From Verrucomicrobiota bacterium (GTDB lineage: Bacteria; Verrucomicrobiota; Lentisphaeria; JABSQK01; JAJFLO01), in contig JAJFLQ010000116.1 in NCBI GenBank assembly GCA_021772615.1, forward strand, positions 97,744-161,743: a stretch of DNA of 64,000 nt, given 5' to 3'. The position numbers and the translations under genes were made by a program. Positions 6,124 through 47,395 of this stretch are shown here, piece after piece (position 1 is the first letter of the stretch; the number at the start of each line of letters is the position of its first letter). Under the pieces are notes generated by a model, which saw only the letters and a program-made list of their open reading frames with translations, had not been told where the DNA came from and did not search any database.

Positions 6124-6160
6124 GCGGCGTGAAACCCACACTGAAGTGTGAACTCCAACG
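6124..6160 (+). repeat. Hairpin repeat family, B-type copy
   Basis: gcggcgtgaaacccacactgaagtgtgaactccaacg. Confidence 0.8.
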
Positions 6161-10304: not shown

Positions 10305-10312
10305 TTCCGCTT

Positions 10313-31422: not shown

Positions 31423-32453
31423 TCAATTTTTATGGCCGGCGGCGCAAGCGCGTCACGGGCTTGCAGATACGGGCTCGATTTGAATCCCAGGAGATTACCG
31501 GGAAAACGCCGGCAGGCCCCATTGTAACGGCGGACGGCGTCGTTATAGCGCTTCCGCTCGACCGTTATTCGATTTTCCGAACCTTCGAGCTGCGCCTGCA
31601 GCGCAAGAAAATTCTCGGTCACGACTTCCTGCGATCGCGCACCGTAACGCGTCAATACATCCGCCAATCCTGCGGACAGGCGTTCCTGCTTCTCCTGAAA
31701 CGCGGTTAGCGCGGCGTCATCGAGAGACTCTGGGGCGATTGACTCGTCGGCCACTGCGGCATGCGCCGCAAGCAGATCGTCAAGCGCGGTACGCTCGATG
31801 TCCGCAGCCGCGTTCACCATTGCGACGAGTTGCGGCACCAGATCCGCGCGCCGCTGGTACACATTCTCAACCTGCGACCACGCCGCGTTGACCTGTTCCT
31901 CATGGTCGATCAGACCATTGTATACGCTAAAAAACACGATCGCGACGCCGATAACGGCAGCTGCGGCAACGCCGGTGACCAGTTGCATCGAGCGACGACC
32001 GGCGGAGGCCGTTCGGTCGCGGTGCCGACGTCGTTTCTTTCGTAAGGCGCCTTTAAGTTCGAGCCCGGGCCGATAGTCCGGTTGCAGCGTCAAACACCGT
32101 TCGAGGTAACGCTGTGATGTGTCAAACAGATTCGGTTGAACATCGGCCTCCGCCCGATTCATCCACGCCTTCGCCAGCAGGGCATTCGCTTCAACAGACA
32201 ACGGCTGCAGCGCGACAGCGTGTTCGAGCGCGGTTGCGGCATCATGCCAATTATAGGATTCGAGATAGGCCCGGCCCTGATCGAGGTAGGTATCGGCCTT
32301 GTCCAGCGCGGCTTGATACTCCAACTCTGTGAGCCCGACATCGAGCGCAATCTGCTTCAGTCGCGCCTCCGTCAATTCGTTCTCTGGCTGCCGACACTCG
32401 AGGTCCAGCATCTTTTCGATAAATGGCTTTAACGCCTCTTCGATCTCCGCCAT
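31419..32453 (-). CDS. LemA family protein with an N-terminal TPR-like extension
   Basis: The C-terminal 190 aa match LemA (TM helix followed by AAWSQVENVYQRRADLVPQLV...RKRYNDAVRRYN...FPGNLLGFK). The N-terminal helical-repeat region of about 150 aa looks TPR-like. Confidence 0.7.
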   Translation of the reverse strand: MAEIEEALKPFIEKMLDLECRQPENELTEARLKQIALDVGLTELEYQAALDKADTYLDQGRAYLESYNWHDAATALEHAVALQPLSVEANALLAKAWMNRAEADVQPNLFDTSQRYLERCLTLQPDYRPGLELKGALRKKRRRHRDRTASAGRRSMQLVTGVAAAAVIGVAIVFFSVYNGLIDHEEQVNAAWSQVENVYQRRADLVPQLVAMVNAAADIERTALDDLLAAHAAVADESIAPESLDDAALTAFQEKQERLSAGLADVLTRYGARSQEVVTENFLALQAQLEGSENRITVERKRYNDAVRRYNGACRRFPGNLLGFKSSPYLQARDALAPPAIKID

Positions 32454-33565
32454 CAGAGTTTCCGCTCATCATGCGATGCTTCAGGTTCTCCAATGCGATT
32501 CACGATATGACCATCCCGCGATTGCGAATCGATCCGAATTCCGATACAACCAAGAAACACCCGTATCGGCGTGTTCAACATGTCCGTCTCTTTGCGGTCA
32601 CGCAACTCGGCCACGAAATCATCAAGATGCCTGACATCGCCACTTATCCACTCCACGTTCTTGTCGACACGAAAACGATGCCGCTCTTGAAGATCCAGCA
32701 TGTGTACCTTCGTTTGCGACTTCGACGGTGGACTGAACGGAAACAATCGTCTCATCAATCTTGCCAGATCCCGGTGGTGAAAAATATGCAGCTCACATCG
32801 CGGACAACGTGTATAGCGAAAGAATCGCGTTTGCTGCGGCCTTTCCTCGAATCTCTCGTCGCAGCCGGCGCAATAGGCGACACGTTCCCGCCGCGCTGCT
32901 TTTTCCGCCAACGATTGAAGGCTCGGCCGGAATGCAGAATTAAGCAGTCCATACCGTGATACGATCCGCAGAATCACAAGCGTAAGCAGCACGATGTACA
33001 TGAAAAGTCCCCATTCGCCAAACACATTCGCGTTCCAAAGTCCGTGAAGGCAACAGGCGACAATGAATGCCGGCAGCAACCCGTAACCAATGCCCTTTTT
33101 CTTGAACTGATAAAATGCCATCCCCATCGGAGCGCTGAACGCGATATGACCGGGAATTGTCAAAATCGTTCGACTGATCAGCGTCGCCAAAGGCGCCTCG
33201 GCATTCACAACGTACATGACATCCTCGTACGTCGAAAATCCAAGCGCGACGCATGACATGTACACCACGCCGTCGACCAGCTCGTTCATATCATGCCTGA
33301 TCCGCGCGTACACGGCAGCCAGCGCCATAAGCTTCGACAGCTCTTCGACGGGCGCAATGACAAGAAAAGCACCGGCTGTGGTTGCGGGGCCATCAACGAA
33401 GGAATAAAAGACGGTCGCGAAAATGATGGACAACAGCCCGCCAACAAACGTGCAGTACAGCATCAGCGAGATCGGCTCTTTCTCGAACGTATCTTTCTCG
33501 CGGATATAAAAGATATACCCGACGCCGCAGACGAATGATATGACGACGTAGGCCAGTAATTGCAT
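32453..33565 (-). CDS. PrsW-family intramembrane metalloprotease with a C-terminal zinc-ribbon-like extension
   Basis: A multi-TM N-terminus carries the PrsW motifs EELSK (EExxK), FSTYED (FxxxE) and HxxxN (HGLWN). The C-terminal soluble part carries CxxC...CxxC (CAGCDERF...CPRCELH). Confidence 0.7.
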   Translation of the reverse strand: MQLLAYVVISFVCGVGYIFYIREKDTFEKEPISLMLYCTFVGGLLSIIFATVFYSFVDGPATTAGAFLVIAPVEELSKLMALAAVYARIRHDMNELVDGVVYMSCVALGFSTYEDVMYVVNAEAPLATLISRTILTIPGHIAFSAPMGMAFYQFKKKGIGYGLLPAFIVACCLHGLWNANVFGEWGLFMYIVLLTLVILRIVSRYGLLNSAFRPSLQSLAEKAARRERVAYCAGCDERFEERPQQTRFFRYTRCPRCELHIFHHRDLARLMRRLFPFSPPSKSQTKVHMLDLQERHRFRVDKNVEWISGDVRHLDDFVAELRDRKETDMLNTPIRVFLGCIGIRIDSQSRDGHIVNRIGEPEASHDERKL

Positions 33566-33759: not shown

Positions 33760-34080
33760 ATGCATGATTTTAAGGCAATTGAACAAACATTAGAAGACCG
33801 CCTGGTTGCACTGACCAAACGAATGGAAGACATCGACGACAGCCTCGGCGCTACGAGCGATGATGATTTCGCAGAAATGGCTACAGAATCGGAGAATGAC
33901 GAGACCCTTGAAGCCGTAGGCCATGCGACGGAAGACGAAGTCAAGCAAATTGTCCTCGCTCTGGAGCGAGTAAAATCGGGGACCTATGGTAAATGTTCGT
34001 CGTGTGGGCGTGCGATTTCCGCGGAGCGCCTGGAGGCTGTCCCCTATGCGATCCGCTGCATTGACTGTGCCCGCGGGTAG
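33760..34080 (+). CDS. DksA/TraR family C4-type zinc-finger protein
   Basis: A 106-aa product with an acidic coiled-coil N-terminus and a C-terminal CSSCGRAI...CIDC (C4 zinc finger). The size and pattern fit TraR/DksA. Confidence 0.75.
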   Translation: MHDFKAIEQTLEDRLVALTKRMEDIDDSLGATSDDDFAEMATESENDETLEAVGHATEDEVKQIVLALERVKSGTYGKCSSCGRAISAERLEAVPYAIRCIDCARG

Positions 34081-34517
34081 CCCGCATAGCGCTGCGCGTG
34101 GTTGCGCTGGTGGGACGTTCAGTTAGCATATCAATCTTGCGTGTTCGATCAGAGGAAGTAAGGTGTGCCCTCTCATGCGCGACCATAGCACATCGCATGG
34201 GCAATCATACCATGCTTGTTCCAGCAGACGGGCATACTGTTGAACCAGCGATCTTATTCGCTCCTCCTGCGTGGATGCTGTAGAGCCTGCATTTAGCGGC
34301 TCCGAAAATATCAGCCGATCTTTTCCATCTGGAGTACGTTCGTAGTTAATCGCAACGACCGCGGCGCCGCTCAGTAGAGCCAACTCAGTAAATCCAGTCC
34401 TGAAATGTCGAAGTCGACCGAAAAACGGTAGTGCGATTCCCGCCAACACGACATCAAGGCTGCAGTTGATTTCGGTGGGGCGGCTCGTTACTGTATCGGC
34501 AAATCTGAACAAACTGG

Positions 34518-34542
34518 CGGTCTGGTCAGGTAACGACCAGAC
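34518..34542 (+). promoter_or_regulatory. Inverted repeat GGTCTGGTC-N7-GACCAGACC about 40 bp upstream of the pspA-like start
   Basis: 9-bp perfect arms are seen in the sequence. Its position between the likely promoter and the ribosome-binding site of the PspA gene suggests an operator or RNA hairpin. Confidence 0.4.
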
Positions 34543-34581
34543 CGTTCCAAAGCGAGAGGAAAATCCAACCGGGAGGACATT

Positions 34582-35355
34582 ATGGGAATTTTCAGATCGA
34601 TTTACCGATACATCATTACGCTCGGCGGACTGATCGAGAGCGGGATCGACGGCAGTACCGACGACCTGCTGTCCACACCGTCCGGGATCAAGGCCAGCTA
34701 TCAGAAAACCCGCGAAAACTGGACGCAGCAATACAGTGAAGTCCGTGAGGCCGTGGCGCACCTGATGATGGTGCTGGAACAGAAACGCAAACGCGTGAAC
34801 GAACTCAAGGCCGAAGCGGATCAGGTCAAGATCAAACTCAAGGGTGCAGTCGGCAAGTTCAAAGAAACGAACGACACACGTTACCAGCAGGCATTCAACG
34901 AGCTGTACACCCGGGACCAGGCGATCGGGGTAGAACAGGAACAACTCGACAAAGACGTTCAGGAACTCCACGCCAAGGTCGACACCTACAAGGTCAAGCT
35001 GAACGATATGCAGAAGCGCATCACCGACCTCAAGAAGAAGGAAGCTTCGGCGATCGCGGACATTGTCAGCAGCCAGCAGATTATCAAGCTGAACGACCGT
35101 CTCAATCACTTGAGCACGGATCTTGATGACCGCAATCTTCAGGCAATCGAAGAGCGCCGCCAGAACCTCGGCGCCCAAGCGAAACTGTCCGGAGAATTGG
35201 CGGCGGTAGAAGACGCCCCGAACATTGATCAGGAACTGATGGCAGCAGGCATGAAATCGGAAGCAGCCGACATTTTTGCTGCAATGCTAGCCGAAGAGGA
35301 TAAGACGCCGGCGACCGCAACGGAAAAGGCCGCAGCGGAAGGCCGCGAGCTTTAG
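34582..35355 (+). CDS. pspA: PspA/IM30 (Vipp1) family protein, the bacterial ESCRT-III superfamily homolog
   Basis: A canonical MGIF N-terminus with a 257-aa all-helical coiled-coil composition (EQKRKRVNELKAEADQVKIKLK...) and the PspA length range. The antisense ORF at 34123-35178 is rejected as a shadow. Confidence 0.8.
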   Translation: MGIFRSIYRYIITLGGLIESGIDGSTDDLLSTPSGIKASYQKTRENWTQQYSEVREAVAHLMMVLEQKRKRVNELKAEADQVKIKLKGAVGKFKETNDTRYQQAFNELYTRDQAIGVEQEQLDKDVQELHAKVDTYKVKLNDMQKRITDLKKKEASAIADIVSSQQIIKLNDRLNHLSTDLDDRNLQAIEERRQNLGAQAKLSGELAAVEDAPNIDQELMAAGMKSEAADIFAAMLAEEDKTPATATEKAAAEGREL

Positions 35356-35523
35356 TGTCACGAACAAGCCCGGGGCCTCTGGCACAATGTCACCAAGCTA
35401 AGGAAACATGCAATAAGACCGCCGAATATCGAACAAGAAATTCTGAATTTCGAAGGGTAAAACTTCAGCATTCAACATTTCTTGTTCTGGGTTCCACATC
35501 CTTGATTTAGTGACATTAGGCCT

Positions 35524-35576
35524 CAGGCGCTGGAAAGCCATCCCGCGGAACGGGATGAACGCCAACGAAAGGCGTC
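35524..35576 (+). repeat. Hairpin repeat family, A-type copy located between pspA and the AAA ATPase gene
   Basis: caggcgctggaaagccatcccgcggaacgggatgaacgccaacgaaaggcgtc has a perfect 8-bp stem (CATCCCGC/GCGGGATG). Confidence 0.8.
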
Positions 35577-35672
35577 AATACCGTGCCCCTCCGGAGCCGG
35601 CAATCAGATCTCCCGGCGGCAATTTCAAAACCGTTTAATACTGTGCGCTCTGAAAATGGGATATCCTGCCGT

Positions 35673-37451
35673 ATGAAGGTCGTTGCGTCGACGTCCGTTG
35701 CTGATCTGCCGTTCATGCAGCGGTTGCGCGAGGCATATGTCTCGCACCAGTCCAATCAGTTCTTGATAAGCGGCAACGTGAGTGACGTGTTTCGCTGCCC
35801 GTGGTTACGCGGTGGCGACGTCTTTACAAACGCCGGCTACAGTAGCCTGAGCGCGTACCTCACCGACCGCCTGTCTATGACCGACCGGATGGTCATACGC
35901 TACAATATCGCCCGCGGCATTCGCTTTCGTACGGACGCCGACCGCACCCGCGCTCACGCCCTTTACGATTCGATATTCACGGCCAATGAACGCAAGATAG
36001 GTCTTAGCAACTTCGACGAGGTCATCGGCAAGAGCGCGGCCTATGTCTTCCCGTCATTGGTGCTGCTGCGAAAACTGTGTTCACTGGCACAGAACGGTGC
36101 GCCCGGCAAAGGATCGATCGCGATCATTTTCGAGTTCGCGGATTCTATTCTACCGAACGCTCCGGCTGATCGTATGTCGGACGCAGACCGCCGGCGCCTG
36201 ATCTTCTTCAAGGAATGGTTTCGAGATCCGGCGTTCATTGCCTCCAAACACCTCGCCATTCTCTGTGCCGACGCAGCCGGAGCCGTGAATGAATCGATAC
36301 GCTCGCTGCCGCACATGGTCCCCATCAATGTGCCGCTCCCGGACACGTCGGAACGCAGGCGCTTTATCCGCTGGTGCCTGCGCACTCAGTCCGATGTCCG
36401 CCTGAGCGGTACACAGACGGCATTTGCGGAACTCAGCGCCGGAATGACACTGCTCGACATTCAACAGATCATGCGTCTCGCCTGTCACCGGCGCGGCAAA
36501 TTGCGGCGTCAGGATTTCATCGGCTATCTCAACCGCTTGCTGATCAGCAAGATCGGCGATTATGTGGAGATCGTGCGCCCGGACTACGCGCTTGACGCCG
36601 TGGTCGGAAATACCGAACTCAAGCAACATCTGACGCGGCTGAAGACCGTATTGCAGCGCGGCGACGCCGATGCGGCGCCAACCGGCGTACTCATTACGGG
36701 CCCGAACGGCGTCGGCAAGACCTTTATTACCATGGCATGGGCGGGAGAATGCAACCGGATCGTGCTGATTCTGAAGAACCTGCGAAGTTCGTGGTTCGGC
36801 GAGACCGATCAGATATTCGAAAAGATTCGCAACGTGTTGTCGGTATTGGGAAATGTCATGATTATCGTCGACGAGGCCGACACGGTATTTGCCAAGCCCG
36901 GGCATCAAACCCACGCGACAGAACAGCGATTGTTCGGCAATGTCATAAGCATGATGAGTGACCGCCGCAACCGGTCGCGAATACTGTGGGTGCTCATGAC
37001 GGCGCGGCCCGACAATCTTGCGCCGGATTTCAAACGCAGCGGGCGATGCGGCCTGCACCTGCCCGTCTTCGACCCGGAAGGCGCAGATCGCGAGGCGTTC
37101 CTTGACTACGTCCTCAAACGCAGCGGCGTCAGCGCCGATTCCGTGTCGGCGGCAAGGCGCCGCAAGCTGTTAAAAATGTCCGCCGGATACAGCCCTGCCG
37201 ATTTCCGGGAATTAATTGCAGAATTCAAGATGGAGGCTATAGTCCGCAAGTCGCCGGTTACAATGGCTATATGCCTTGATGTGCTGCAGGATTTTATCCC
37301 CGGAGAAATAACAGTTCAGCGCCGCCTGCAGACCCTCCAGGCGGTGATGCACTGTTCCCGCCGATCGCTGTTGCCGGACACATTGCGATCGGCATCAAAA
37401 GTGGAGGTTCAGGAGGAAATTAATACGCTGCAGAGGCAACTGCAGAGATAG
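35673..37451 (+). CDS. Classic-clade AAA ATPase (Vps4/spastin/FtsH-like ATPase module) with a roughly 330-aa N-terminal region of unknown function
   Basis: The start is taken at MKVVAS, because the longer ORF overlaps the repeat at 35524. Motifs seen: Walker A GVLITGPNGVGKTF, Walker B VMIIVDEAD, sensor-1 and SRH-like VLMTARPDNLAPDFKRSGRCGLHL (compare ATNRPDxLDxAxLRPGRFD), and a FGETDQIFEKIR stretch (compare GESEKLVRxLF). The N-terminal region carries degenerate P-loop-like stretches and may be an inactive AAA-like D1. Confidence 0.8.
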   Translation: MKVVASTSVADLPFMQRLREAYVSHQSNQFLISGNVSDVFRCPWLRGGDVFTNAGYSSLSAYLTDRLSMTDRMVIRYNIARGIRFRTDADRTRAHALYDSIFTANERKIGLSNFDEVIGKSAAYVFPSLVLLRKLCSLAQNGAPGKGSIAIIFEFADSILPNAPADRMSDADRRRLIFFKEWFRDPAFIASKHLAILCADAAGAVNESIRSLPHMVPINVPLPDTSERRRFIRWCLRTQSDVRLSGTQTAFAELSAGMTLLDIQQIMRLACHRRGKLRRQDFIGYLNRLLISKIGDYVEIVRPDYALDAVVGNTELKQHLTRLKTVLQRGDADAAPTGVLITGPNGVGKTFITMAWAGECNRIVLILKNLRSSWFGETDQIFEKIRNVLSVLGNVMIIVDEADTVFAKPGHQTHATEQRLFGNVISMMSDRRNRSRILWVLMTARPDNLAPDFKRSGRCGLHLPVFDPEGADREAFLDYVLKRSGVSADSVSAARRRKLLKMSAGYSPADFRELIAEFKMEAIVRKSPVTMAICLDVLQDFIPGEITVQRRLQTLQAVMHCSRRSLLPDTLRSASKVEVQEEINTLQRQLQR

Positions 37452-37495
37452 TTGGGAGTGAAGTCAACAGGCAACGATTAACCGAAGAAAAAACA

Positions 37496-37912
37496 ATGGC
37501 ACAGATACCTAATGATCCAAAATATGTGTATGCTGATATCCTTATCGCGCTGGCACATTGCGACGACCATGTCGATGGGCGCGAACGGGAGTTCCTGAAC
37601 GGTGTGTTCAAGGATATGGACCTCGATTTGAAGATCACAGACCTGATGTGGGAAACGCCGCGAACGCTCGATGTCGTCGAGGCGATCCTTGCAGACGTGA
37701 CAGACGAATCGTTCAAGCGTTGTCTGCTAAAGGACTGTTTTCTCCTCGCATACGCAGACGACATGGTCGTCCCGGAAGAAAACAAGTTCATCCAGCACCT
37801 GTGTGCGATGCTCAATATCGACGACGAGGTCGAGGAACGGATCGAAAAATGGGTCGAGGATGCCCTTGACCATAACGCTGAAGCACAGGAGTTGTTCGGC
37901 CACTGCGCCTGA
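37496..37912 (+). CDS. TerB-like (tellurite-resistance TerB / DjlA N-terminal domain family) protein
   Basis: A 138-aa acidic helical protein with ALAHCDDHVDGREREFL, comparable to the TerB AKADGxxxxEE pattern. It lies 45 bp downstream of the AAA ATPase and is probably cotranscribed. Confidence 0.5.
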   Translation: MAQIPNDPKYVYADILIALAHCDDHVDGREREFLNGVFKDMDLDLKITDLMWETPRTLDVVEAILADVTDESFKRCLLKDCFLLAYADDMVVPEENKFIQHLCAMLNIDDEVEERIEKWVEDALDHNAEAQELFGHCA

Positions 37913-38252
37913 CTGCTGATGTTCGGATTCTGCCCGTGGGGGGCTAATATTCCATACCGTCTTACGTATCAATAGTAGAAACACGGTTGTTTGCGCGTTG
38001 GAACGACGGCAGACGCCTTGATTCACGGCTGCATGGACGAAAACACGTCGGCGATGCCGGTGGCACGCCTCTTCATTCTTTCGCCGTGGGTTTCCACCAG
38101 TATCATTATGCGGCATCCGCGTTAGGTTCTATCAGACACGCAATTTTCCGGCATTCCGCCGGGCCGCACTGAGTGGTAACACGACTGGCGGACAGCAACC
38201 TCCGCGAGCGCCGGTACGTTCGCGGGACGTTCTACTATTCCAGCTAAACCCC

Positions 38253-38268
38253 GGGCACAATTGTGCCC
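38253..38268 (+). promoter_or_regulatory. Perfect 16-bp palindrome GGGCACAATTGTGCCC about 105 bp upstream of the nfeD/flotillin operon
   Basis: The palindrome is seen directly in the sequence. It resembles a dimeric regulator operator. The half-site GGCAC also resembles a sigma-54 -24 element, but no -12 TTGC follows at the correct spacing. Confidence 0.4.
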
Positions 38269-38373
38269 TCCCGGAAGAACGTATAAGCAATACCGCGGAA
38301 TGTACGCAGCCTGCACAGTAAACACTAAAGCCTGACACCATCGGATGCCGGGCGGCAACGCACGTGGTTTAGA

Positions 38374-39027
38374 ATGATGAACGCGATAATTGAATTCTTT
38401 CAGGTGATTGTGACACCAGGCATGTTGCCGTACACGGTCATGCTGGGGCTGGTGATACTCTACTGGATCACGGTGATAATCGGTGCGATGGATATAGACA
38501 TTATTGATGGCCCTGATTTCGACGTGGACGGTGATATGGACGCTGATGCCGATGCGCCTGATGCCGGTGCGTTCCGTTACATTGTAGGCTTTGTCAATGC
38601 CGACAAAGTCCCGCTCACGATTATACTGAGTTTCCTGATCATCAAGATGTGGATAATCGCATGTTTGTACTACATGTACCTGGCGCCGAACATATCGGTG
38701 CCATTGCCTCCCGTCGTTGTGGGGATTATTTTGTTTGCAGTGGCGTTTTTCACTGCAACATTTCTAACCGGTTACACCACCCGCCCCCTGGCCGACGTGT
38801 TCGAGCACAAGCCGACGCGCGGCCGGCAGCATCTGGTCGGCCGCGAATGCCGTGTAAAAACAACATCGGTGACACACGACTTCGGCCAGGCAGAAGTAAA
38901 GATCGATCAATCGTTTGTCCTCATTTCAGCGCGCTGCAGTGAGGCGACTGAGTTTGAAAAAGGCGATCAAGCTGTAGTCGTGGGCTACGATCAGGAAAAA
39001 GACGTTTACGAAATCCGGAAATTATGA
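38374..39027 (+). CDS. NfeD-like membrane protein (YuaF/YqiJ family) with a C-terminal OB-fold domain
   Basis: The N-terminus has several TM helices and an acidic D-rich loop. The C-terminus GRECRVKTTSVTHDFGQAEVKIDQSFVLISARC...GDQAVVVGYD matches the NfeD beta-barrel. It lies immediately upstream of flotillin, the classic nfeD-floT pairing. Confidence 0.7.
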   Translation: MMNAIIEFFQVIVTPGMLPYTVMLGLVILYWITVIIGAMDIDIIDGPDFDVDGDMDADADAPDAGAFRYIVGFVNADKVPLTIILSFLIIKMWIIACLYYMYLAPNISVPLPPVVVGIILFAVAFFTATFLTGYTTRPLADVFEHKPTRGRQHLVGRECRVKTTSVTHDFGQAEVKIDQSFVLISARCSEATEFEKGDQAVVVGYDQEKDVYEIRKL

Positions 39028-39055
39028 AGCATTTCAAAGAATAGGAGGGGTCGAA

Positions 39056-41161
39056 ATGGGCAGTTTTATTGTTGGTTCTGCGTTTCTCTTAGCCATTGCA
39101 CTGGTCGTCGGGACAGGAATCCTGTTCCTGGCAAAGAAGATGTACCGTAAAGTTGATCAAGGCGAAGCCTTGATCATCAACAAGAGTGACCGAAAGGTTC
39201 CTGTATCATTCAGTGGTGGCTTGGTCTTTCCGATTTTCCACAAGGCAGAGGTCATGGACATCGCCGTAAAGGCAATGGAGGTCGAACGCAGCGGCAAGAA
39301 CGGGCTGATCTGCGAAGACAACATTCGCGCCGACATCAACGTAACATTCTATGTCCGCGTCAATAAGACCGAAGACGATGTCCTCAAAGTAGCTCAGGCC
39401 GTAGGCTGCGAGCGCGCATCGACTCTGGACACACTGAAAGAGCTGTTTCAGGCCAAGTTCTCGGAAGCGCTCAAGACGGTCGGAAAACAGATGGAGTTCA
39501 TGACGTTGTTCACGGAACGCGAGCAATTCAAGGAACGCATCATACGTGTGATCGGGGAAGACCTCAACGGTTACAAGCTGGAAGACGTCGCCATTGATTA
39601 TCTCGAACAGACACCGCTCGAAAGCCTCGATCCGGACAATATCCTTGACGCACAGGGGATTCGCAAGATCACTGACCTCACGGCAAGGGAGGCGATCTCT
39701 ACCAACGAATTCAGGCGGAACAAGGAGAAGGTAATCACGCAGCAAGACGTCGAGGCCCAGGAGAAAATCCTCGAACTCGAAAAGCAGCAGGCCGATGCGG
39801 AGGCCCGGCAGCGCCGCGAAATTCAAACGATTCAGGCACGCGAACAGGCAGAGATCGATAAGGTAGGTTCCGAAGAAAAGCTAAAGGCCGAACATGCACG
39901 CATTCGCACGGCAGAAGAGATCGCTGTTGCCGAGGAGAATAAACAGCGTCAGGTCGAGATCGCTCTAAAGGCGAAAGAGCGAACAATCGCCGTCGAGACG
40001 GAACGCGTCCAACGCGATCAACAGCTTGAGGCAGTGGAGCGCGAACGTCTCGTTGCCATCAAGGACATCGAGAAGGAAAAGGCGGTCGAGATCGAGAAGA
40101 AGAAGATTCAGGATGTCATTCGGGAACGCGTGATGGTCGAAAAGACCGTAGCGGAAGAACAGGAAAAGATCAAAGACACCGTCGAACTGGCAGGCGCCAA
40201 ACGCGAACAGCAGGTGCAGCTCATTGCGGCGCAGCGCGAGGCCGAAGAAAAACTTGTGACCGAGACCAAGGCTGCGGAGGCGAAGGAACAGGCAGCCAAG
40301 AGTCTGTACGAAGAGGCCGTAACCATGGCCGAGGCCGAACGCGTAAGTGCGGAAAAATACGCACATGCGAAGAAGGTGATGGCCGAGGGCGTGATCGCCG
40401 AGCGTTCCGCTGCCGGCCTCGCCGATGTCAAGGTGCGCGAAGCAGACGCCAACGCGATCGAACTCCACGGAAGAGCGGAAGCCAACGCAATGATAGAGAG
40501 GCACAAGGCCGAAGCGTTTGGTACTGAATCCATTGGCGACGCCAAAGCGAAAGCGGCAACCGCATCGTATACGGCAGAAGCCACAGGCACAGAGATCACC
40601 GGCACCGCCGAGGCCAAGTCCATGGCGGCGAAGTACAAGGCCGAGGCCGACGGTATCGACCAGAAAGCGGCCGCAATGAAGAAGTTCGATGGTGTCGGGC
40701 GGGAGCATGAAGAATTCAAACTCAACCTGGCCAAGGTCGAGCGCGTCGAAATTGCGGCGATAGACGTAAACCGTCAGGTCGCAGAGGCGCAGGCAATGGT
40801 CCTTGGCGAGGCCATGAAGACCGCAAACATCGACATTGTCGGCGGCGACGGCGAATTTCTGAATACGTTCTTCAAGTCGATTAGTCTGGCAAAGTCAATC
40901 GACGGCTTCGTCGACAAGAGCGACCTAACACGCGCCCTGACCAACGGCGACCATTCGAAGATCGGGGAAAAAATCAAGGCACTGATCGGCCGCGAAGGCC
41001 TGTCTCCCGAAGATATCAAGAATTTGACGGTGTCAGCACTGCTCGCGCGACTGGCGTTGAAAGGGAAGGATGACGGCATAAAGGCCGAAGCCGCCGGACT
41101 GCAGGGTGTCGTTAAAAACCTCGGTCTGGACGACGTCCTCGCCCTGTGGCTCGCGAAATAA
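39056..41161 (+). CDS. Flotillin (SPFH/band-7 family, FloT/YuaG-like) with an extended EA-rich coiled-coil
   Basis: An N-terminal TM anchor precedes an SPFH domain (VPVSFSGGLVFPIFHKAEVMDIAVKAMEVE...). A long E/A/K/R-rich flotillin coiled-coil region follows. The length is 701 aa. Confidence 0.85.
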   Translation: MGSFIVGSAFLLAIALVVGTGILFLAKKMYRKVDQGEALIINKSDRKVPVSFSGGLVFPIFHKAEVMDIAVKAMEVERSGKNGLICEDNIRADINVTFYVRVNKTEDDVLKVAQAVGCERASTLDTLKELFQAKFSEALKTVGKQMEFMTLFTEREQFKERIIRVIGEDLNGYKLEDVAIDYLEQTPLESLDPDNILDAQGIRKITDLTAREAISTNEFRRNKEKVITQQDVEAQEKILELEKQQADAEARQRREIQTIQAREQAEIDKVGSEEKLKAEHARIRTAEEIAVAEENKQRQVEIALKAKERTIAVETERVQRDQQLEAVERERLVAIKDIEKEKAVEIEKKKIQDVIRERVMVEKTVAEEQEKIKDTVELAGAKREQQVQLIAAQREAEEKLVTETKAAEAKEQAAKSLYEEAVTMAEAERVSAEKYAHAKKVMAEGVIAERSAAGLADVKVREADANAIELHGRAEANAMIERHKAEAFGTESIGDAKAKAATASYTAEATGTEITGTAEAKSMAAKYKAEADGIDQKAAAMKKFDGVGREHEEFKLNLAKVERVEIAAIDVNRQVAEAQAMVLGEAMKTANIDIVGGDGEFLNTFFKSISLAKSIDGFVDKSDLTRALTNGDHSKIGEKIKALIGREGLSPEDIKNLTVSALLARLALKGKDDGIKAEAAGLQGVVKNLGLDDVLALWLAK

Positions 41162-41314
41162 GTCAACTGCGTCGCCGCAGGCACGATGATATGGCTACGT
41201 TTAACATGGGACCGAGAACATGGTATATTAAGCAAACGATCCGGGCCAGAGGTTCCGCCGTTGAAATTGCCCCCACCGGGACTGATTGCTGCCCCCCAAA
41301 GGCTGCACGGTGGT

Positions 41315-41362
41315 GACGCCCTTCGTTGGCGTTCACAGCTTCAGATGTGGGTTTTCAGCGCC
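41315..41362 (-). repeat. Hairpin repeat family, B-type copy in inverted orientation
   Basis: gacgcccttcgttggcgttcacagcttcagatgtgggttttcagcgcc; its reverse complement gives ...gaaaacccacatctgaagctgtgaacgccaacgaaggg. Confidence 0.75.
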
Positions 41363-41427
41363 GTACCAGAGCGTACCGAACACATCCAAAGCTGTGAACG
41401 CCACACGTAAAAACACATCGGCGGTCT

Positions 41428-41451
41428 GTTGGAGTTCGCGCTTCAGCGTGC
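41428..41451 (-). repeat. Hairpin repeat family copy with a GCGC-TGAA-GCGC stem (compensatory variant), in inverted orientation
   Basis: The reverse complement of gttggagttcgcgcttcagcgtgc is gcacgctgaagcgcgaactccaac. It has the conserved TGAA loop and GAACTCCAAC tail with a different stem. Confidence 0.6.
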
Positions 41452-41493
41452 TTGCGCCTCCCCGTACGAATCGCTACGCGTGTTGTGACGTTG

Positions 41494-41530
41494 CGTGAAA
41501 CCCACACGAAAGTGTGAACAGCTCCAAGGA
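41494..41530 (+). repeat. Hairpin repeat family, B-type copy (CACAC-GAAA-GTGTG)
   Basis: gcgtgaaacccacacgaaagtgtgaacagctccaagg. Confidence 0.75.
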
Positions 41531-41692
41531 AGGCATAAGATATCGTCGATTCGGTCGCCGGCACCTGGATTTAGAAACCCTGAAAATAGTTGAACGGTAC
41601 AACGTACCGACGCAAGTTGTCGCGGCTAAACGTTACACCAGCATTGTCGCAAGCTCGCACTCCAATCACAAGCGTATCTGTACCTCCTTATC

Positions 41693-44600
41693 ATGTCCGA
41701 AGAATCATCACCAACCAATCCCGATGCACCACAAGCCGCTGCCACCGAAGACCAGAGTGGAGAGACGCTGGAAGGCGGCGCCTACGAAGTACTGCGAAAA
41801 CGCCTGAGTACGCTCAATCGTAGCCTCCTGAAGAAACTCGAACAACTCAACGTCCGGCGCAAAGACGTGTTCGGCGGCCAGGAGCTGGCGATCCTGGGCA
41901 ACGCCCGCATCAAGACCGAGAACAACTGCGTCCCCAGGGATATCATCGGCGTCGGCAGCCATCTGATCTTCGGCTACAACGTGTTTATCGGCCTCAAGTC
42001 CGAAACCGCGGTCAGCGACGTGTTCAGCGTGCATCGCTTCGACGGCGTCGATCTCCACCTTCCCGACGCGGACGTGCTCGGCGATCCGAATTTTCTGCGC
42101 GACTTCAGCGAACTGTACAAGTACTATAAGAACGCACGGTTCCTGCAATTCATCAAGTCTCCCGGGCGCCTGCTGATGATCTTTCAGGTCGGCGAAACCG
42201 TCGGCGACCGCAAGATGTTTCGATTCAAGCTCCATCGCGACCACACGCTGGAATATGTCGACGACCGCGGCGATCTCGAATACACGCCGCCGCCGCAACA
42301 TGATTTCGAATGGGAATCGCCGTCGCGTGACGATCACGTGGCGGGCATGTATCCGCACATATCCATCCGGGATATTGTTTTTGTCGAATGCGTCGGCGGC
42401 GATCTCACGATAAAGGTAGAGAACAACACCGAGAGCGGCGACGGCATTTATGAGGAAGCGGTCGAGAATCCGGATCAGACCCTTGACGACGCTTATATTC
42501 GCTACGCACTGGTGGATGGCCTGGTGCTGCTAAAAATCCGGCCCTACCGTGAGAACGTCACGCGCTACCTCGTCTTTAATCCAAAGGACCAGACGGTCAC
42601 CCGTATCGATTCCATTGGCGAGGCCTGTATCAAACTGCCGGAAGGACACGGGCTTATTTTTCCCAAAGGCTACTTCCTGCATGGCGGCGGTGCACGACAA
42701 TTCGACGAAGATGTGGCGGGTATGCTGTACCATGATTGCGTCCGCTCCCCTAATGGCGAGGACTTCCTCTATATTTTTTATCATCGCGAGCACGGCCGTC
42801 ACATCCTGATTCGCTACAATCTCATCTCCAAGGAAATCTCGAATCCCATAATCTGCCATGGTTATTCGCACTACGATGACGGCAAGATGATGATGTTCAC
42901 GGCGGAGAACGACGACCCGCGCCGGGTGCATCCGATGCAGATCTGGCAAACACCGTTCTACGCCGACTCGTTCGAGATCGAACACAAAACAGACTCATTC
43001 CTCACCAAGATCGGCAATCGTGATCTTGTGCGCGGCATCTCCGAAGGCTACGCCATCAGTCGCCTGGCGGGAAGTGAACGGGTAACGCTGGTGATCTACC
43101 AGGACCTGATCCAATCCTGTACCAATATGATCGACGGCTACCATTGGCTTGATCACGACGAGGTGTTCAACCTGCAGTCGCTGGTAAAGGAGATGAAAAC
43201 TGCGGCATCGGCAGCGATCGACGAGTACGAGAAAGTTGTCCGCATCCGCGAGAATACTGCGACACGCATCACCGAAAGTGTGGCATCGGTCAAGCGCTGC
43301 CGGCTGGACTACGCCACGGACCGATTGCTCACTATCGACAACTTCGTTACCGCTCTGAGCGAGGTGCGGACGCTGCGCGGTCATGTGATCTCACTACGCG
43401 AGTTGCGCTATGCCGACCTTGCCCTGATCAATGATCTCGACAAACAGCTTGAGGTGATGAACCAGGACATCTCCGTGGCCTGCGTCGATTTTCTGATGCG
43501 CGATGATGCGCTCGCGCCGTACGAAGTACGTAACCGCGAGATCGAGGCGGGTATCGACAGTATCCACAAGATCGCCGATCTCAAACCACAGGCAGAATCT
43601 CTCGAGACGCTCGCGGCACAACTCGACCTGCTCACCGATGTCATTAACAATCTGAACATCGACGACGCCACCAAGACCACCGAAATCGTCGATAAGATCA
43701 CGGACATTTATGCCGGCGTCAATCGGACGCGCGCCCTGGTTCGCAATGCGCGCACGGAGCTGGGAAAGTCCGAAGCCAAGGCCGAATTTGCAGCGCAATA
43801 CAAGCTGCTGAGCCAGAGTATCAGCAACTACATCGGCATGTGCGACACCACGACAAAATGCGATGAATTCCTCACCAAGGTCATGATTCACATCGAGGAG
43901 CTGGAAGGAAGATTCGCCGATTTCGAAGACTACGTAATGCAGCTGCACGAGAAACGGGAAGAAGCCTATACAGCGTTCTCGAGTCGCAAACAGATCCTTG
44001 ATGACGAGAAGAAGCGCCGGATCGGGTCATTGGCATCATCTGCCAACCGAATCCTGAAAGGCGCGGTCAACCGTGCGGAGACATTCAAGAGCGTCGACGA
44101 GGTCAACGCCTACTTCGCCTCGGACCTCATGGTATCGAAACTACGAGGTATTGTCGAGACATTGCACGACATGGGGGATTCGGTAAAAGCGGATGACCTT
44201 AGCGGCCAGATAAAGACCGCCAAAGATGAAATCGTCCGCCGGTTGCGGGACAAGTTGGAGTTGTTTGATGAAGGCGACAATGTCATTAAACTTGGCGATT
44301 ACCGCTTTACGGTAAACACGCAGCCACTCGAACTCACGACGGTGATGCGGGACGGCGACATGGCATTTCACCTTAACGGAACCGATTTCTACGAGGCGAT
44401 AAACGATCCTGAGTTTCTGGAGACGCGGAACCTGTGGACGCAGGAATTGGTAAGCGAAAATCAAGAGGTATTCCGCGGCGAATTTCTGGCCTACCAGATT
44501 CTAATGGCCGCCGAGAACAACGATAAGAACCTTACTAACGAATCATTGAAGACTCTGGCAGTCAACGACGCGAAGTTGCTCGAATGCGTGCAACATTTTT

Positions 44601-46948
44601 GCGCGGACCGATACGATGAGGGCTACGAAAAAGGCGTTCACGATCACGATGCTGCCCGCATCCTGAAGGCCCTGGTCACGTTGCTACACGAGGCGCAGCT
44701 GCTACGGTACGACTCTGTGTCGCGCGCACATGCGATCCTGTTCTGGTGCTATTCGCCGGACGGACCGGCCAAGGAACGGCTGCGCAGCAAACTGCGCAGC
44801 ATCGGCGCCCTGCCGGCGGTATTCGGCTACACCGATACGTACCCACCCTATGTCGAAGAGATACGTGAGGCCATGGCCGCATTTTTCACCGATCTCGGAC
44901 GCATTCCAGACGCAACGATCCTGACCAATGCATCCGAGTATCTGTACCACGAGCTTCAGGATGCAAGCGATCTTGAGATCACCATCAGTCAGGAGACAAA
45001 GACCCTACGTGAGCGGTTCACAACATATCTCAAGGATAAGACGGTGTACCGCAAATTCACGGACGACATCCGGGCAATGGCGTCCGACCTGAAAAATACA
45101 CTTAGCCTCGTACATGACTGGGTCGCCGCCTACGTGCGCACGTGCGAAAACGATGACGCCGCGTTCCTGATTGACGAGGTCGTTACACTGATTGTTGCCG
45201 GCGACCGTTTCGTGGTCGATACTACGTCGGTCGTGACGTCTGCAACCGTCACGGACCTGCTGGGACGGCACCCGCGTATCGAGGGCAGTTCTATGCCGAT
45301 GCATCTCGACCGTTTCCTGCTCCGCCTCAAGACATATTGCGAGGTGCAGGTACCGCTCTACCGACGGTTTATCCATATGCGGACGGCGTTTATCGAGAAT
45401 CGGCGGGAGTCCATGCGACTGTCCGAATTCCAGCCCCGTGTCATGGGATCCTTTGTACGCAACAAGCTGATCAATGACGTCTACCTGAACCTGGTGGGCG
45501 CGAACTTCGCCAAACAGATGGGCGCTGCCGGCGAAAACAAGCGCACCGATCTCATGGGCCTGTTGTTGTTGATCTCGCCGCCCGGCTATGGCAAGACGAC
45601 CCTCATGGAATACATGGCCAACCGCCTCGGGCTCACGTTCATGAAGATTAACGGGCCCGCGATCGGTCACAAAGTCACGTCGCTCGATCCCGCCGAGGCG
45701 CCCAATGCCACAGCACGCGTCGAGCTGGACAAGCTGAACCTGTCCCTGGAGATGGGCAATAACGTCATGATCTATCTCGACGATATCCAGCACGTGAACC
45801 CCGAATTTCTGCAGAAGTTCATCTCGCTTTGTGACGCCCAACGGAAGATCGAAGGCGTGTATCGCGGGGTCACTCGCACATATGATCTGCGCGGAAAAAA
45901 GGTAGCCGTAGTGATGGCAGGAAATCCTTACACCGAGAGCGGCGATACGTTTCAGATCCCGGACATGCTCAGCAACCGCGCCGACACGTACAACCTCGGC
46001 GATATCTCAACGAGTGCCGCGGATGTATTTGCCATGAGTTTCATAGAAAATGCGATGACCTCAAATCCGGTACTTAACAAGATCAGCAGCCATGGGCATG
46101 ATGACGTCTACCGGTTTCTTGATGCGGTCGACCGGGGTTCCGCCGACGGCATTACATTCGACTACGGATACTCAGTTGCCGAAGTTGACGAGATACTCAA
46201 TGTGCTCCGAAAGCTGTGTAAGGTGCGTGACGTCGTGCTCGAAGTAAACCGGCAGTACATTTACTCGGCGGCGCAGCAGGACGACTACCGCACCGAGCCA
46301 CCTTTCAAACTCCAGGGTTCCTATCGCAACATGAACCGTATGGCAGAGAAGGTTTTCCCGGTCATGACCGATGCGGAAGTCGAGCAAATCATCACCGATC
46401 ATTACTACAACGAGGCCCAGACACTCACAGCCGGTGCAGAAAGCAATATCCTCAAATTCCGTGAGATCACCGGCAAGCTCGCTGACAACGACCTGGCGCG
46501 TTGGAATGAAATCAAGGGCGAATTCAACCGGCGTCAGGCGTTATCCGGCATCGACGACAGCGACGATCTGGGAAAGATTCTGGCGCAGCTTTCCGGATTC
46601 ACCGCAAGTGTCGGAAAGGTTCGCGACGTCCTCGACAAGGGGCTTAATACGGGGCTTAAAAACGTGCTCGAAGCCGTCGCTATGCGGTCGGCGGCTGCGG
46701 CAACGGATCGTCCGGATATCACGCCGCTCATCGACGCGGTGAAGGCGCTTGCGCCAACACCGGAAAGCACGGCAGCTACATCACCAAACGACAACGCAAC
46801 AGCCATAGCCGCTCGACAAACGGAAATACTTGAATCCATCGCCGGGATCCTCGAAGAACTCAAGGACAACAGCGAAACCAACGTACGCCTTCGCGACCTT
46901 ATCGAGCAACTAATGAAAGGCAGCCTTGTCGTCGACCTAAAAGACTGA
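41693..46948 (+). CDS. Giant (1751 aa) uncharacterised protein with a C-terminal MoxR/AAA_5-like AAA+ ATPase module
   Basis: It is a single uninterrupted ORF. Near residue 1270 there is a Walker A LLLISPPGYGKTTLMEY, then a Walker B VMIYLDDIQH, then a MoxR-like sensor KVAVVMAGNPYTE...IPDMLSNRADTYNL. The preceding roughly 1250 aa are largely helical and match no domain I can name. Confidence 0.85.
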   Translation: MSEESSPTNPDAPQAAATEDQSGETLEGGAYEVLRKRLSTLNRSLLKKLEQLNVRRKDVFGGQELAILGNARIKTENNCVPRDIIGVGSHLIFGYNVFIGLKSETAVSDVFSVHRFDGVDLHLPDADVLGDPNFLRDFSELYKYYKNARFLQFIKSPGRLLMIFQVGETVGDRKMFRFKLHRDHTLEYVDDRGDLEYTPPPQHDFEWESPSRDDHVAGMYPHISIRDIVFVECVGGDLTIKVENNTESGDGIYEEAVENPDQTLDDAYIRYALVDGLVLLKIRPYRENVTRYLVFNPKDQTVTRIDSIGEACIKLPEGHGLIFPKGYFLHGGGARQFDEDVAGMLYHDCVRSPNGEDFLYIFYHREHGRHILIRYNLISKEISNPIICHGYSHYDDGKMMMFTAENDDPRRVHPMQIWQTPFYADSFEIEHKTDSFLTKIGNRDLVRGISEGYAISRLAGSERVTLVIYQDLIQSCTNMIDGYHWLDHDEVFNLQSLVKEMKTAASAAIDEYEKVVRIRENTATRITESVASVKRCRLDYATDRLLTIDNFVTALSEVRTLRGHVISLRELRYADLALINDLDKQLEVMNQDISVACVDFLMRDDALAPYEVRNREIEAGIDSIHKIADLKPQAESLETLAAQLDLLTDVINNLNIDDATKTTEIVDKITDIYAGVNRTRALVRNARTELGKSEAKAEFAAQYKLLSQSISNYIGMCDTTTKCDEFLTKVMIHIEELEGRFADFEDYVMQLHEKREEAYTAFSSRKQILDDEKKRRIGSLASSANRILKGAVNRAETFKSVDEVNAYFASDLMVSKLRGIVETLHDMGDSVKADDLSGQIKTAKDEIVRRLRDKLELFDEGDNVIKLGDYRFTVNTQPLELTTVMRDGDMAFHLNGTDFYEAINDPEFLETRNLWTQELVSENQEVFRGEFLAYQILMAAENNDKNLTNESLKTLAVNDAKLLECVQHFCADRYDEGYEKGVHDHDAARILKALVTLLHEAQLLRYDSVSRAHAILFWCYSPDGPAKERLRSKLRSIGALPAVFGYTDTYPPYVEEIREAMAAFFTDLGRIPDATILTNASEYLYHELQDASDLEITISQETKTLRERFTTYLKDKTVYRKFTDDIRAMASDLKNTLSLVHDWVAAYVRTCENDDAAFLIDEVVTLIVAGDRFVVDTTSVVTSATVTDLLGRHPRIEGSSMPMHLDRFLLRLKTYCEVQVPLYRRFIHMRTAFIENRRESMRLSEFQPRVMGSFVRNKLINDVYLNLVGANFAKQMGAAGENKRTDLMGLLLLISPPGYGKTTLMEYMANRLGLTFMKINGPAIGHKVTSLDPAEAPNATARVELDKLNLSLEMGNNVMIYLDDIQHVNPEFLQKFISLCDAQRKIEGVYRGVTRTYDLRGKKVAVVMAGNPYTESGDTFQIPDMLSNRADTYNLGDISTSAADVFAMSFIENAMTSNPVLNKISSHGHDDVYRFLDAVDRGSADGITFDYGYSVAEVDEILNVLRKLCKVRDVVLEVNRQYIYSAAQQDDYRTEPPFKLQGSYRNMNRMAEKVFPVMTDAEVEQIITDHYYNEAQTLTAGAESNILKFREITGKLADNDLARWNEIKGEFNRRQALSGIDDSDDLGKILAQLSGFTASVGKVRDVLDKGLNTGLKNVLEAVAMRSAAAATDRPDITPLIDAVKALAPTPESTAATSPNDNATAIAARQTEILESIAGILEELKDNSETNVRLRDLIEQLMKGSLVVDLKD

Positions 46949-46954
46949 ATAGCC

Positions 46955-47191
46955 ATGACGCATTCCGACGCGCGCGACCTCGGCACTCAACCGATCGCCG
47001 AGATCCTGCTTGCCCACAACATCGGCGCCCGTGATCTCGTAAAGGCTTCTACCGAACAGATCACGCACAAGATGGTATCCCGCGCCTGCAAAGGCAAGAG
47101 ATTAACGCCTCGCGTGCAATCAAAGATTGTGCGCGCGATCAATACCGTTGCAGGAAAAACTTACAGCCCAACCGATCTGTTTACCTATTAA
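46955..47191 (+). CDS. Small XRE-like helix-turn-helix protein (78 aa)
   Basis: The start lies 7 bp after the giant gene's stop. IAEILLAHNIGARDLVKASTEQITHKMVSRACKGKRLTPRVQSKIVRAINTVAGKTYSPTDLF fits the XRE/Cro HTH layout, including the terminal sptDLF. Confidence 0.5.
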   Translation: MTHSDARDLGTQPIAEILLAHNIGARDLVKASTEQITHKMVSRACKGKRLTPRVQSKIVRAINTVAGKTYSPTDLFTY

Positions 47192-47349: not shown

Positions 47350-47395
47350 ACCAGAGCTCGGTTTATGTTGCGCGCAACATAAACCGAGCTCTGGT
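47350..47395 (+). promoter_or_regulatory. Perfect 46-bp palindrome ACCAGAGCTCGGTTTATGTTGCG|CGCAACATAAACCGAGCTCTGGT
   Basis: Read directly from the sequence; both 23-nt arms are exact reverse complements. No T-tract follows on either strand. It lies between the XRE-like gene and the next plus-strand genes. Confidence 0.6.

Follow-up and report, generated by a model that had tools for sequence, protein, structure and literature searches.

A six-gene cluster joining a PspA-like protein and a tandem classical AAA ATPase to a flotillin-giant ATPase triad: a candidate membrane-remodelling locus of Lentisphaeria

A stretch of 64,000 nucleotides from a bacterium of the Verrucomicrobiota (lineage Lentisphaeria; contig JAJFLQ010000116.1, positions 97,744 to 161,743 of the forward strand; hereafter, the window) contains, at positions 34582-47191, seven open reading frames (ORFs) that are all co-oriented on the + strand. 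Six of them, we propose, form a composite cluster for envelope stress and membrane remodelling that consists of two modules, each conserved on its own: a PspA-like protein encoded with a tandem AAA ATPase and, in the subclade of the window, a TerB-domain protein; and a triad made of a YqiJ-type membrane protein, a flotillin and a giant AAA+ protein. The probability of this picture, taken as a whole, can be put at about 0.55. The anatomy of the cluster, that is, its gene content, domain architecture, motif integrity and gene linkage, is well supported, and the interactions between its proteins, as well as their activities, are all such as we infer. The locus had been singled out by an earlier reading of the letters alone (hereafter, the sequence-only reading), which described seven co-oriented ORFs; their coordinates are all borne out and are as follows:

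34582-35355, + strand: PspA-like protein, 257 aa
35673-37451, + strand (longest ORF from 35583, 622 aa): tandem classical-clade AAA ATPase, 592 aa
37496-37912, + strand: TerB-domain protein, 138 aa
38374-39027, + strand: YqiJ/YuaF-type NfeD-like membrane protein, 217 aa
39056-41161, + strand: flotillin/YqiK-type SPFH protein, 701 aa
41693-46948, + strand: giant AAA+ protein of the DUF3686 family, 1751 aa
46955-47191, + strand: unassigned ORF, 78 aa

For the disassembly and recycling of bacterial ESCRT-III-like polymers, such as those of PspA and Vipp1, a conserved PspA-linked classical AAA ATPase with an intact pore loop offers a concrete, directly testable candidate unfoldase. In its six-gene form, the cluster furthermore connects PspA genetically with an SPFH scaffold and with a widespread, uncharacterised giant ATPase of the DUF3686 family. 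What is new here is the fused six-gene architecture; both of the associations that it combines were published in 2024 from comparative genomics, as discussed below.

Relatives of the locus were collected by scanning species-representative genomes for homologues of the ATPase, which yielded at least 472 loci. The best 80 of these, examined together with 10-kb flanks, come mostly from Verrucomicrobiota, Planctomycetota, Lentisphaerae, Hydrogenedentota, Sumerlaeota and Poribacteria. In all, 90 related loci (labelled up to L090) were compared, plus one further contig, referred to here as the JGI contig. The nearest relatives are metagenome-assembled genomes (MAGs) of Lentisphaerae/Lentisphaeria/Victivallales.

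The PspA-like protein and its tandem ATPase

The 257-aa product of the first gene is taken here to belong, as a divergent protein, to the PspA/Vipp1 (ESCRT-III) superfamily, as judged from its family profile and its predicted fold. Taken by itself, the protein scores 25.2 bits against the Pfam model PspA_IM30 (PF04012), below the gathering threshold of 33.9 bits, and a search of the PDB with the single sequence returned coiled-coil noise only. A profile was therefore built from the PspA-like ORFs found upstream of ATPase homologues in 47 loci. The best eight PDB matches of this profile are all Vipp1 or PspA (E = 2e-5 to 3e-4), with profile positions 44-250 aligned in the five best-covering ones, and 21 of the 47 family members match PspA_IM30 individually (E < 0.01), the best of them with E = 1.8e-11. 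With 37 database homologues as input, AlphaFold2 (AF2) gives a model with a mean predicted local distance difference test score (pLDDT) of 77, and of above 90 in the core, in which two long helices (residues 33-96 and 99-210) form a hairpin and two short ones (215-224 and 228-238) follow. Foldseek ranks Vipp1 (8qhx) first for this model, with weak E-values of ~1e-2, which are usual for helical hairpins; the superposition with another Vipp1 entry, 9eom, extends over 213 columns with TM scores of 0.63 and 0.73. Since both the family profile and the modelled fold match Vipp1 first, the PspA/IM30 identity given to this protein in the sequence-only reading is upheld even though the Pfam score stays below threshold.

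Both ends of the protein are conserved. The N-terminus carries an amphipathic-looking segment, which reads MGIFxSxYRYIxTLGGLIE in the window subclade and MFxAIGRWxKAVGYLLTGQID in the wider ATPase-linked family; the confidence of the AF2 model is low across it. Behind a linker that is variable, acidic and rich in Ser and Lys, the extreme C-terminus is conserved as well: of the 47 ATPase-linked family members, about 40 end in LPE, and those of the window subclade end in (G/Q/K)RE(L/I). The type of tail, LPE or RE(L/I), goes with the subclade of the ATPase and, for this reason, the C-terminal motif may be a docking or threading tag.

The ATPase gene starts at the ATG at 35673 (592 aa) and not at the GTG at 35583, as can be judged from a database protein that is 100% identical and from homologues, which are 570-620 aa long. 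The Pfam AAA model covers aa 369-493 of the long form (622 aa). Matches to NCBIfam models are weak, namely, 63 bits for CDC48, 47.7 bits for CdvC (cutoff 650), 46 bits for PAN and 36 bits for FtsH. An alignment of 45 homologues reveals how far the motifs of the C-terminal (D2) and N-terminal (D1) AAA domains, including the second region of homology (SRH), are conserved:

D2 Walker A, GPNGVGKT: lysine in 45/45
D2 pore loop 1, (Y/W/F)-F-G: glycine in 45/45
D2 Walker B, D-E: D400 in 44/45, E401 in 45/45
D2 SRH, T-A-R-P-D-x-L-x-P-D-x-K-R-x-G-R: R455 and R458 invariant, 45/45
D2 lid: classical-clade motif YSPADF present
D2 sensor 1: invariant alanine (T-A-R) in the place of asparagine
D1 P-loop position: G34-N35-x-x-D38, without the Walker lysine
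D1 Walker B position: E-H-A-E, without the DE pair

In the AF2 model of the ATPase (pLDDT 90.7; predicted TM score 0.84), aa 13-297 fold into a second AAA-type alpha/beta domain plus lid, that is, D1, and only about 12 residues, modelled with low confidence, precede it. When the whole chain was submitted to Foldseek, it matched NVL, p97/Cdc48, Rix7, Drg1 and MSMEG_0858 over ~600 columns with E ~1e-19; the family profile of the ATPase retrieves VAT/p97 as the best PDB match (E = 1e-48), via the C-terminal domain. By its motifs and model, the enzyme is a Cdc48/p97-like tandem (type II) AAA protein with a degenerate, inactive D1 and an apparently active D2. The ATPase competence of D2 is likely and not certain, because the sensor-1 asparagine has given way to an invariant alanine.

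The sequence-only reading had described this protein as a 592-aa ATPase of the classical clade, and both its length and its clade hold, given the support for the ATG at 35673 and the invariant double-arginine SRH. The large unknown N-terminal region that it saw there turns out, by the AF2 model, Foldseek and the motif alignment alike, to be the degenerate AAA domain. The model contains no MIT-like N-terminal domain, the segment of aa 13-297 being AAA-like. The designation of the enzyme as Vps4-like is accordingly given up: there is no MIT domain, there are two AAA cassettes, and the type is that of Cdc48/p97.

A search with D1 alone yields 498 clusters at 50% identity, 140 of them at E <= 1e-10; almost all have lengths of 570-620 aa, which indicates that the ATPase family is distinct and of moderate size. 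Its members belong mostly to bacteria of the Planctomycetes-Verrucomicrobia-Chlamydiae (PVC) group and of candidate phyla.

The linkage of this family to PspA was counted in those 65 loci in which at least 5 kb of upstream sequence is available. A PspA-like gene is found upstream of the ATPase gene, within ~6 kb and always on the same strand, in 55 of the 65. It is adjacent to the ATPase gene in 12 loci; in the other 43, it lies 1.2-6 kb upstream, most often at ~2.9 kb, and the genes in between, in the loci inspected, encode an ATP-binding cassette (ABC) permease and an ABC ATPase, with a gene for an OmpA/substrate-binding protein nearby. Such linkage is too consistent for chance and thus supports a functional coupling of PspA and the ATPase. 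Of the proposed pairing of an ESCRT-III-like protein with an AAA disassemblase, therefore, the association of PspA with a classical-clade AAA protein stands, in 55 of 65 loci and across phyla, but the Vps4 architecture does not. One of the loci, L055, is recorded as belonging to a Candidatus Bathyarchaeia archaeon; there too, a PspA-like gene precedes an ATPase homologue on the same strand, at the ~2.9 kb that is the most frequent distance in the bacterial loci, which could reflect mis-binning or horizontal transfer.

The YqiJ-flotillin-giant triad and the fused cluster

The third gene of the cluster encodes a TerB-like protein, as had been suggested: the Pfam model TerB (PF05099) is matched with 31.0 bits against a threshold of 24.4. 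A TerB gene follows the ATPase gene in the window subclade only, namely, in L001, L006, L089, L090 and the JGI contig (where the Pfam TerB match is weak).

The three genes that come next form the triad. The 217-aa protein scores 29.7 bits with YqiJ_N (PF21001; threshold 23) and 13.8 bits, below threshold, with the C-terminal domain of NfeD; since YqiJ_N is matched above threshold and the gene sits directly upstream of the SPFH gene, the view of this protein as an NfeD-like partner of flotillin is retained. In L001, L006, L086 and L087 as well, a homologue of it is encoded ahead of the flotillin. The 701-aa protein consists of one transmembrane segment, an SPFH domain and a long helical region rich in Glu, Ala and Lys. 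Its N-terminal part (aa 1-215) matches Band_7 with 49 bits (threshold 23.6), which agrees with its earlier naming as a flotillin. The full-length sequence has no match in Pfam and none in the PDB, and the Pfam model of the flotillin C-terminus is not matched either; we suspect that the Pfam blank for the full-length protein stems from the composition filters of HMMER acting on the low-complexity helical region. Orthologues of this flotillin are found with E = 1e-190 to 1e-297 in L001, L006, L086 and L087.

The giant protein of 1751 aa comprises DUF3686 (aa 45-484, 612 bits), DUF7902 (aa 605-688, 85.5 bits), a long helical region and the C-terminal AAA+ module that had been read from its sequence. 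The latter (aa ~1285-1440, Walker A GYGKT, Walker B DD) is extremely conserved and passes the Pfam thresholds for AAA (29.1 bits) and, about equally, AAA_5 (26.8 bits, threshold 22); AAA_3, the MoxR model, is not matched. Searched against the PDB, both the C-terminal fragment and a family profile of 30 sequences align by the Walker A region only, with p97 and RuvB. Past sensor 1, there is an N-P...P-x-x-L-x-N-R pattern, which we take to resemble that of AAA_5 and MoxR proteins. The MoxR type that the sequence-only reading gave to this module is kept as a candidate assignment. At least 6832 homologues match the giant over its full length at 45-66% identity, and the family is named "DNA repair ATPase" by NCBI. 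The triad is a separate, widespread unit: it stands alone in Gimesia aquarii (L086) and a deltaproteobacterial MAG (L087), where genes for PspA, the ATPase and TerB are absent from the vicinity. Another SPFH pair, composed of NfeD and FloA, was noticed in L089 (17212-18776, - strand), ~5 kb downstream of the genes for PspA, the ATPase and TerB and on the opposite strand.

The complete order pspA-ATPase-TerB-YqiJ-flotillin-giant is found on five contigs, namely, the window, L001, L006, L090 and the JGI contig. The flanking genes differ on every one of them, and none of the genes that flank the cluster in the window (those for PrsW, LemA, TPM, DksA, Tmk and others) recurs beside it in the relatives. 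The same six genes within different flanks argue for a conserved unit of a Lentisphaerae-like lineage as opposed to an oddity of one genome; the gene order is thus not unique to the genome of the window. The spacing of the genes varies. The window has gaps of 317, 461 (TerB/YqiJ) and 531 nt; at the same three junctions, the gaps in L090 are 292, 428 and 291 nt, and in the JGI contig and L006 the genes are tightly packed. This pattern would fit a division into the sub-operons [pspA], [AAA-terB], [yqiJ-flotillin] and [giant] in some genomes.

Known systems, a possible mechanism and competing readings

The sequence-only reading had regarded the pairing of PspA with a classical AAA ATPase as uncharacterised in bacteria. 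This is true insofar as our literature search found no experimental work on such a pair in bacteria or on DUF3686; computationally, however, both modules have already been described by Ravi et al. (mSystems 2024, PMC11237479; preprint 2020), who also drew, for both of them, the same inference from gene context. In their comparative genomic analysis, bacterial PspA forms a dyad with an "Inactive-Classical-AAA+Classical-AAA" protein, exemplified by AEY64320.1/AEY64321.1 and by the operon of OGG56892.1. The window ATPase has the same layout of a degenerate and an active classical AAA domain, as well as the same linkage to PspA, and the loci L003 and L004 of Poribacteria repeat the order of the OGG56892.1 operon, that is, PspA, OmpA/substrate-binding protein, permease, ABC ATPase, a further gene, AAA. 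The window clade differs in that the transporter genes are missing, PspA is adjacent to the ATPase, TerB comes next, the triad is fused to this set, and the PspA tail is RE(L/I) and not LPE.

The other precedent in the same study is an operon of CesT/Tir, PspA, YqiJ/YuaF, Band-7/flotillin and a beta-propeller/coiled-coil/AAA protein (ANH61663.1 from Dokdonia), of which there is an abbreviated YqiJ-flotillin-AAA form. The window shares with it the three downstream genes in the same order, and L086 and L087 confirm the abbreviated triad. Unlike that operon, the window has no CesT/Tir gene, and its PspA comes with a classical AAA ATPase of its own and with TerB, hence two ATPases. We have found no published description of a PspA-ATPase-TerB set fused to a YqiJ-flotillin-giant set with two ATPases and without CesT/Tir.

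Several features bring to mind the ESCRT-III/Vps4 (CdvB/CdvC) system: a gene of the ESCRT-III superfamily adjoins a gene for a classical AAA ATPase whose pore loop is aromatic and whose SRH carries two arginines, and the conserved C-terminal motif of PspA, placed behind a flexible linker, resembles the arrangement of the MIT-interacting motif (MIM). In contrast to that system, the window ATPase lacks MIT, is a tandem and not a single cassette, and scores higher with CDC48 than with CdvC. With Cdc48/p97/VAT, it shares the tandem D1-D2 fold, and its best PDB sequence matches are of this kind; here, the differences are that there is no double-psi-barrel N domain and that D1 has neither the Walker A lysine nor the DE pair of Walker B. 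According to a 2025 review, a Vps4-like ATPase is apparently absent from bacteria. Makarova et al. (2024) derive Vps4 from Cdc48 and describe an archaeal PspA-like gene beside a Cdc48-like "Vps4" without MIT; the bacterial PspA-AAA dyad can be seen as an interesting parallel to this archaeal pair.

The pspA-ydjGHI operon of Bacillus subtilis also encodes PspA with an SPFH protein, YdjI, which is cited in passages of PMC7619361, PMC10936438 and PMC9239133 as required for the localisation of PspA. Its SPFH protein is of another subfamily and has other partners, and an AAA ATPase, a giant ATPase and TerB are all missing from the Bacillus operon.

With these systems in mind, the following mechanism can be envisaged. 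The PspA-like protein, as suggested by its family, would probably bind the membrane via its N-terminal amphipathic segment and polymerise where the membrane is stressed. Hexamers of the ATPase might then pull PspA subunits from the polymer by threading them through the D2 pore, starting, likely, from the flexible C-terminal tail with its conserved terminal motif, so that the polymer would be recycled or remodelled, in a way similar to the action of Vps4 on ESCRT-III or to that of a Cdc48 segregase. TerB would serve as an accessory protein. The triad probably would build and remodel an SPFH assembly that is serviced by the giant ATPase, and the two modules could be coupled if the SPFH/YqiJ scaffold recruits or positions PspA, by analogy with YdjI of Bacillus. 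ATP-driven remodelling of PspA polymers is plausible; the odds that PspA is the substrate of the ATPase are roughly even.

A number of observations weigh against the picture of a composite cluster with such a division of labour. The ATPase has neither an MIT domain nor a Cdc48-type N domain, and the replacement of the sensor-1 asparagine casts some doubt on the competence of D2. In 10 of the 65 loci, those of Sumerlaeota among them, there is no PspA gene nearby. The fused clusters (n=5) all come from one lineage, with 57-62% protein identity, so that the adjacency of the two modules could simply be inherited. As a rule, the two modules are found apart: L088 contains PspA and the ATPase alone, and L089 the dyad, TerB and one more gene. 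The hairpin-bearing gaps in the window, finally, suggest several transcription units. Hence, the sequence-only view of the ensemble as one machine survives in that the six genes are conserved together on five contigs, but what is conserved is a lineage-specific juxtaposition of mostly separate modules.

A competing reading makes PspA-AAA-TerB and YqiJ-flotillin-giant mere neighbours that function independently. The triad does occur without PspA, AAA and TerB in Gimesia and the deltaproteobacterium, the dyad does without the triad in L088, L089 and ~80 other loci, the fused examples all belong to one clade, and the TerB/YqiJ gap is wide, 461 nt with a palindrome in the window and 428 nt in L090. 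We consider full independence rather doubtful, nevertheless: the fusion has been kept on five contigs at ~57-62% protein identity while all flanking genes changed, the JGI contig and L006 have their genes very closely spaced, cooperation of PspA with SPFH proteins has experimental precedent in Bacillus, and there are other operons that combine PspA, YqiJ, flotillin and the giant (Ravi et al.). The ATPase could also be a general membrane-associated unfoldase or segregase, a bacterial analogue of Cdc48, with damaged membrane proteins or transporter subunits as its clients and PspA as a co-induced partner or adaptor. This would suit the majority of loci, where the ATPase gene ends an operon with OmpA/substrate-binding protein, permease and ABC ATPase genes, the lack of any ESCRT-III-specific recognition domain in the ATPase, and the 10 of 65 loci that have no PspA gene nearby; yet PspA is retained where the transporter genes are missing, being adjacent to the ATPase in 12 loci, the window clade included, and the ATPase-linked PspA family has a conserved C-terminal tail motif of its own, which makes a general segregase unlikely.

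The composite-cluster picture has a stronger version, in which the PspA-AAA dyad is a true bacterial counterpart of ESCRT-III/Vps4 that recognises its substrate by the MIM-like LPE or RE(L/I) tail, drives disassembly or scission by ATP and is, in this lineage, physically coupled to a flotillin cage with its giant ATPase. We advance it tentatively, as something that may well not be the case. If true, it would present the dyad either as an independent reinvention or as a relic of an ancestral pairing of a polymer with a segregase. It is very improbable, in turn, that the cluster is an anti-phage or abortive-infection system in which TerB, the AAA ATPase and the membrane proteins act as sensor and effector. 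TerB domains are found in some defence systems, and PADLOC returned weak matches to IetA/TRIP13 (E = 4e-7 to 5e-6) and BnzA (E = 1.7e-4). Across all seven proteins, however, what PADLOC reports is unspecific similarity of AAA, TerB or coiled-coil kind, and none of its system models is matched; moreover, the flanking genes are of housekeeping or envelope type (Tmk, DksA, PrsW, LemA/TPM), the cluster contains no nuclease or toxin effector, and its conservation follows a vertical pattern in varied neighbourhoods that are not defence islands.

Hairpins, the 78-aa ORF and neighbouring genes

The intergenic regions of the cluster and its borders contain a series of inverted repeats, which bear no strand unless indicated:

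34518-34544: hairpin with a 10-bp stem, ~40 nt upstream of pspA, unique in the window
35431-35487: imperfect inverted repeat with 25-nt arms, just downstream of pspA
35519-35569, + strand: copy of repeat family D2, in the pspA/AAA gap
38253-38268: perfect 16-nt palindrome GGGCACAATTGTGCCC, in the 461-nt TerB/YqiJ gap
41327-41403: inverted repeat with 23-nt arms, 91% complementary, in the flotillin/giant gap
41492-41525, + strand: copy of repeat family D1, in the flotillin/giant gap
47350-47395: perfect 46-bp palindrome (stem >20 bp) past the end of the 78-aa ORF, unique in the window

The palindromes at 34518, 38253 and 47350, which the sequence-only reading had taken to be regulatory, all exist. 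Those at 34518 and 47350 are far beyond chance; that at 38253 is so only weakly, being matched in 20 of 100 shuffles at up to 3 mismatches. Five relatives were inspected for a palindrome comparable to that at 34518 in front of pspA, and none has one, so there is no evidence for a conserved operator at this site. The 46-bp palindrome is terminator-like and likely marks the 3' end of the unit; it is followed by TTGACTTTCC and not by a clean run of T. A CAATTG core is common to the palindrome at 38253-38268 and to one upstream of pspA in L089 (9114-9127, CATGCAATTGCCTG), which is probably a coincidence.

The two repeat families (whose names are unrelated to the AAA domains) are both built of a short GC hairpin followed by GAAC(T/G)CCAAC. 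Family D2 has the hairpin ATCCCGC-N-GCGGGAT, then GAACGCCAAC; family D1 has the hairpin CACAC-N4-GTGTG, then GAAC.... Copies of D2 start at 10311, 21303 and 35519 and those of D1 at 6126, 23658, 29528 and 41492, all on the + strand. Two of the D1 copies are located ~180 nt past the stops of + strand genes, in convergent intergenic regions, which points to REP-like (repetitive extragenic palindromic) or 3'-end elements rather than to regulators specific to the cluster. Hairpin repeats thus do occupy the gaps between the units, as had been said, but the copies at 35519 and 41492 belong to families that extend over the window. An Rfam scan of the whole window gave no match, so that the intergenic hairpins fall into no Rfam family, and scans for promoter and terminator consensus sequences produced counts not above those in shuffled sequence.

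The 78-aa ORF, which begins 6 nt past the giant gene, had been taken for a small XRE-type helix-turn-helix (HTH) gene. It matches no HTH_3/XRE-type model, indeed no Pfam model even at E <= 10 and no NCBIfam model, and it is not conserved with the cluster; its sole signal is PHROG 1468, 'transcriptional repressor' (15.5 bits, E = 0.02), by which it is possibly a small HTH protein. Searches with phmmer and jackhmmer found no homologue in the 90 related loci and, for this reason, the ORF is left out of the system, to which it probably does not belong.

Upstream of the cluster, a divergent operon on the - strand (29672-33565) encodes a PrsW-family intramembrane protease, a protein with TPR and LemA domains and two TPM-domain proteins. 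It is another envelope-associated module, and its adjacency to the cluster is seen in none of the related loci; TPM-domain proteins have been reported as partners of PspA in the ydj operon of Bacillus (Ravi et al. 2024, PMC11237479). Closer to the cluster, ~500 nt upstream of pspA, there is a gene for a 106-aa DksA/TraR-type C4 zinc-finger protein (33760-34080, + strand), whose position next to the cluster is not conserved in the other loci. The ~460 nt between this gene and pspA (34100-34560) contain no ORF on the + strand. On the - strand, a 351-aa ORF (34123-35178) overlaps pspA; the overlapping part is probably spurious, and the 3' portion might be a gene remnant. On the other side of the cluster, a 622-aa ORF without a Pfam match precedes a + strand gene (51981-52943) whose 320-aa product is rich in ankyrin repeats (Pfam Ank 160 bits, Ank_2 162 bits).

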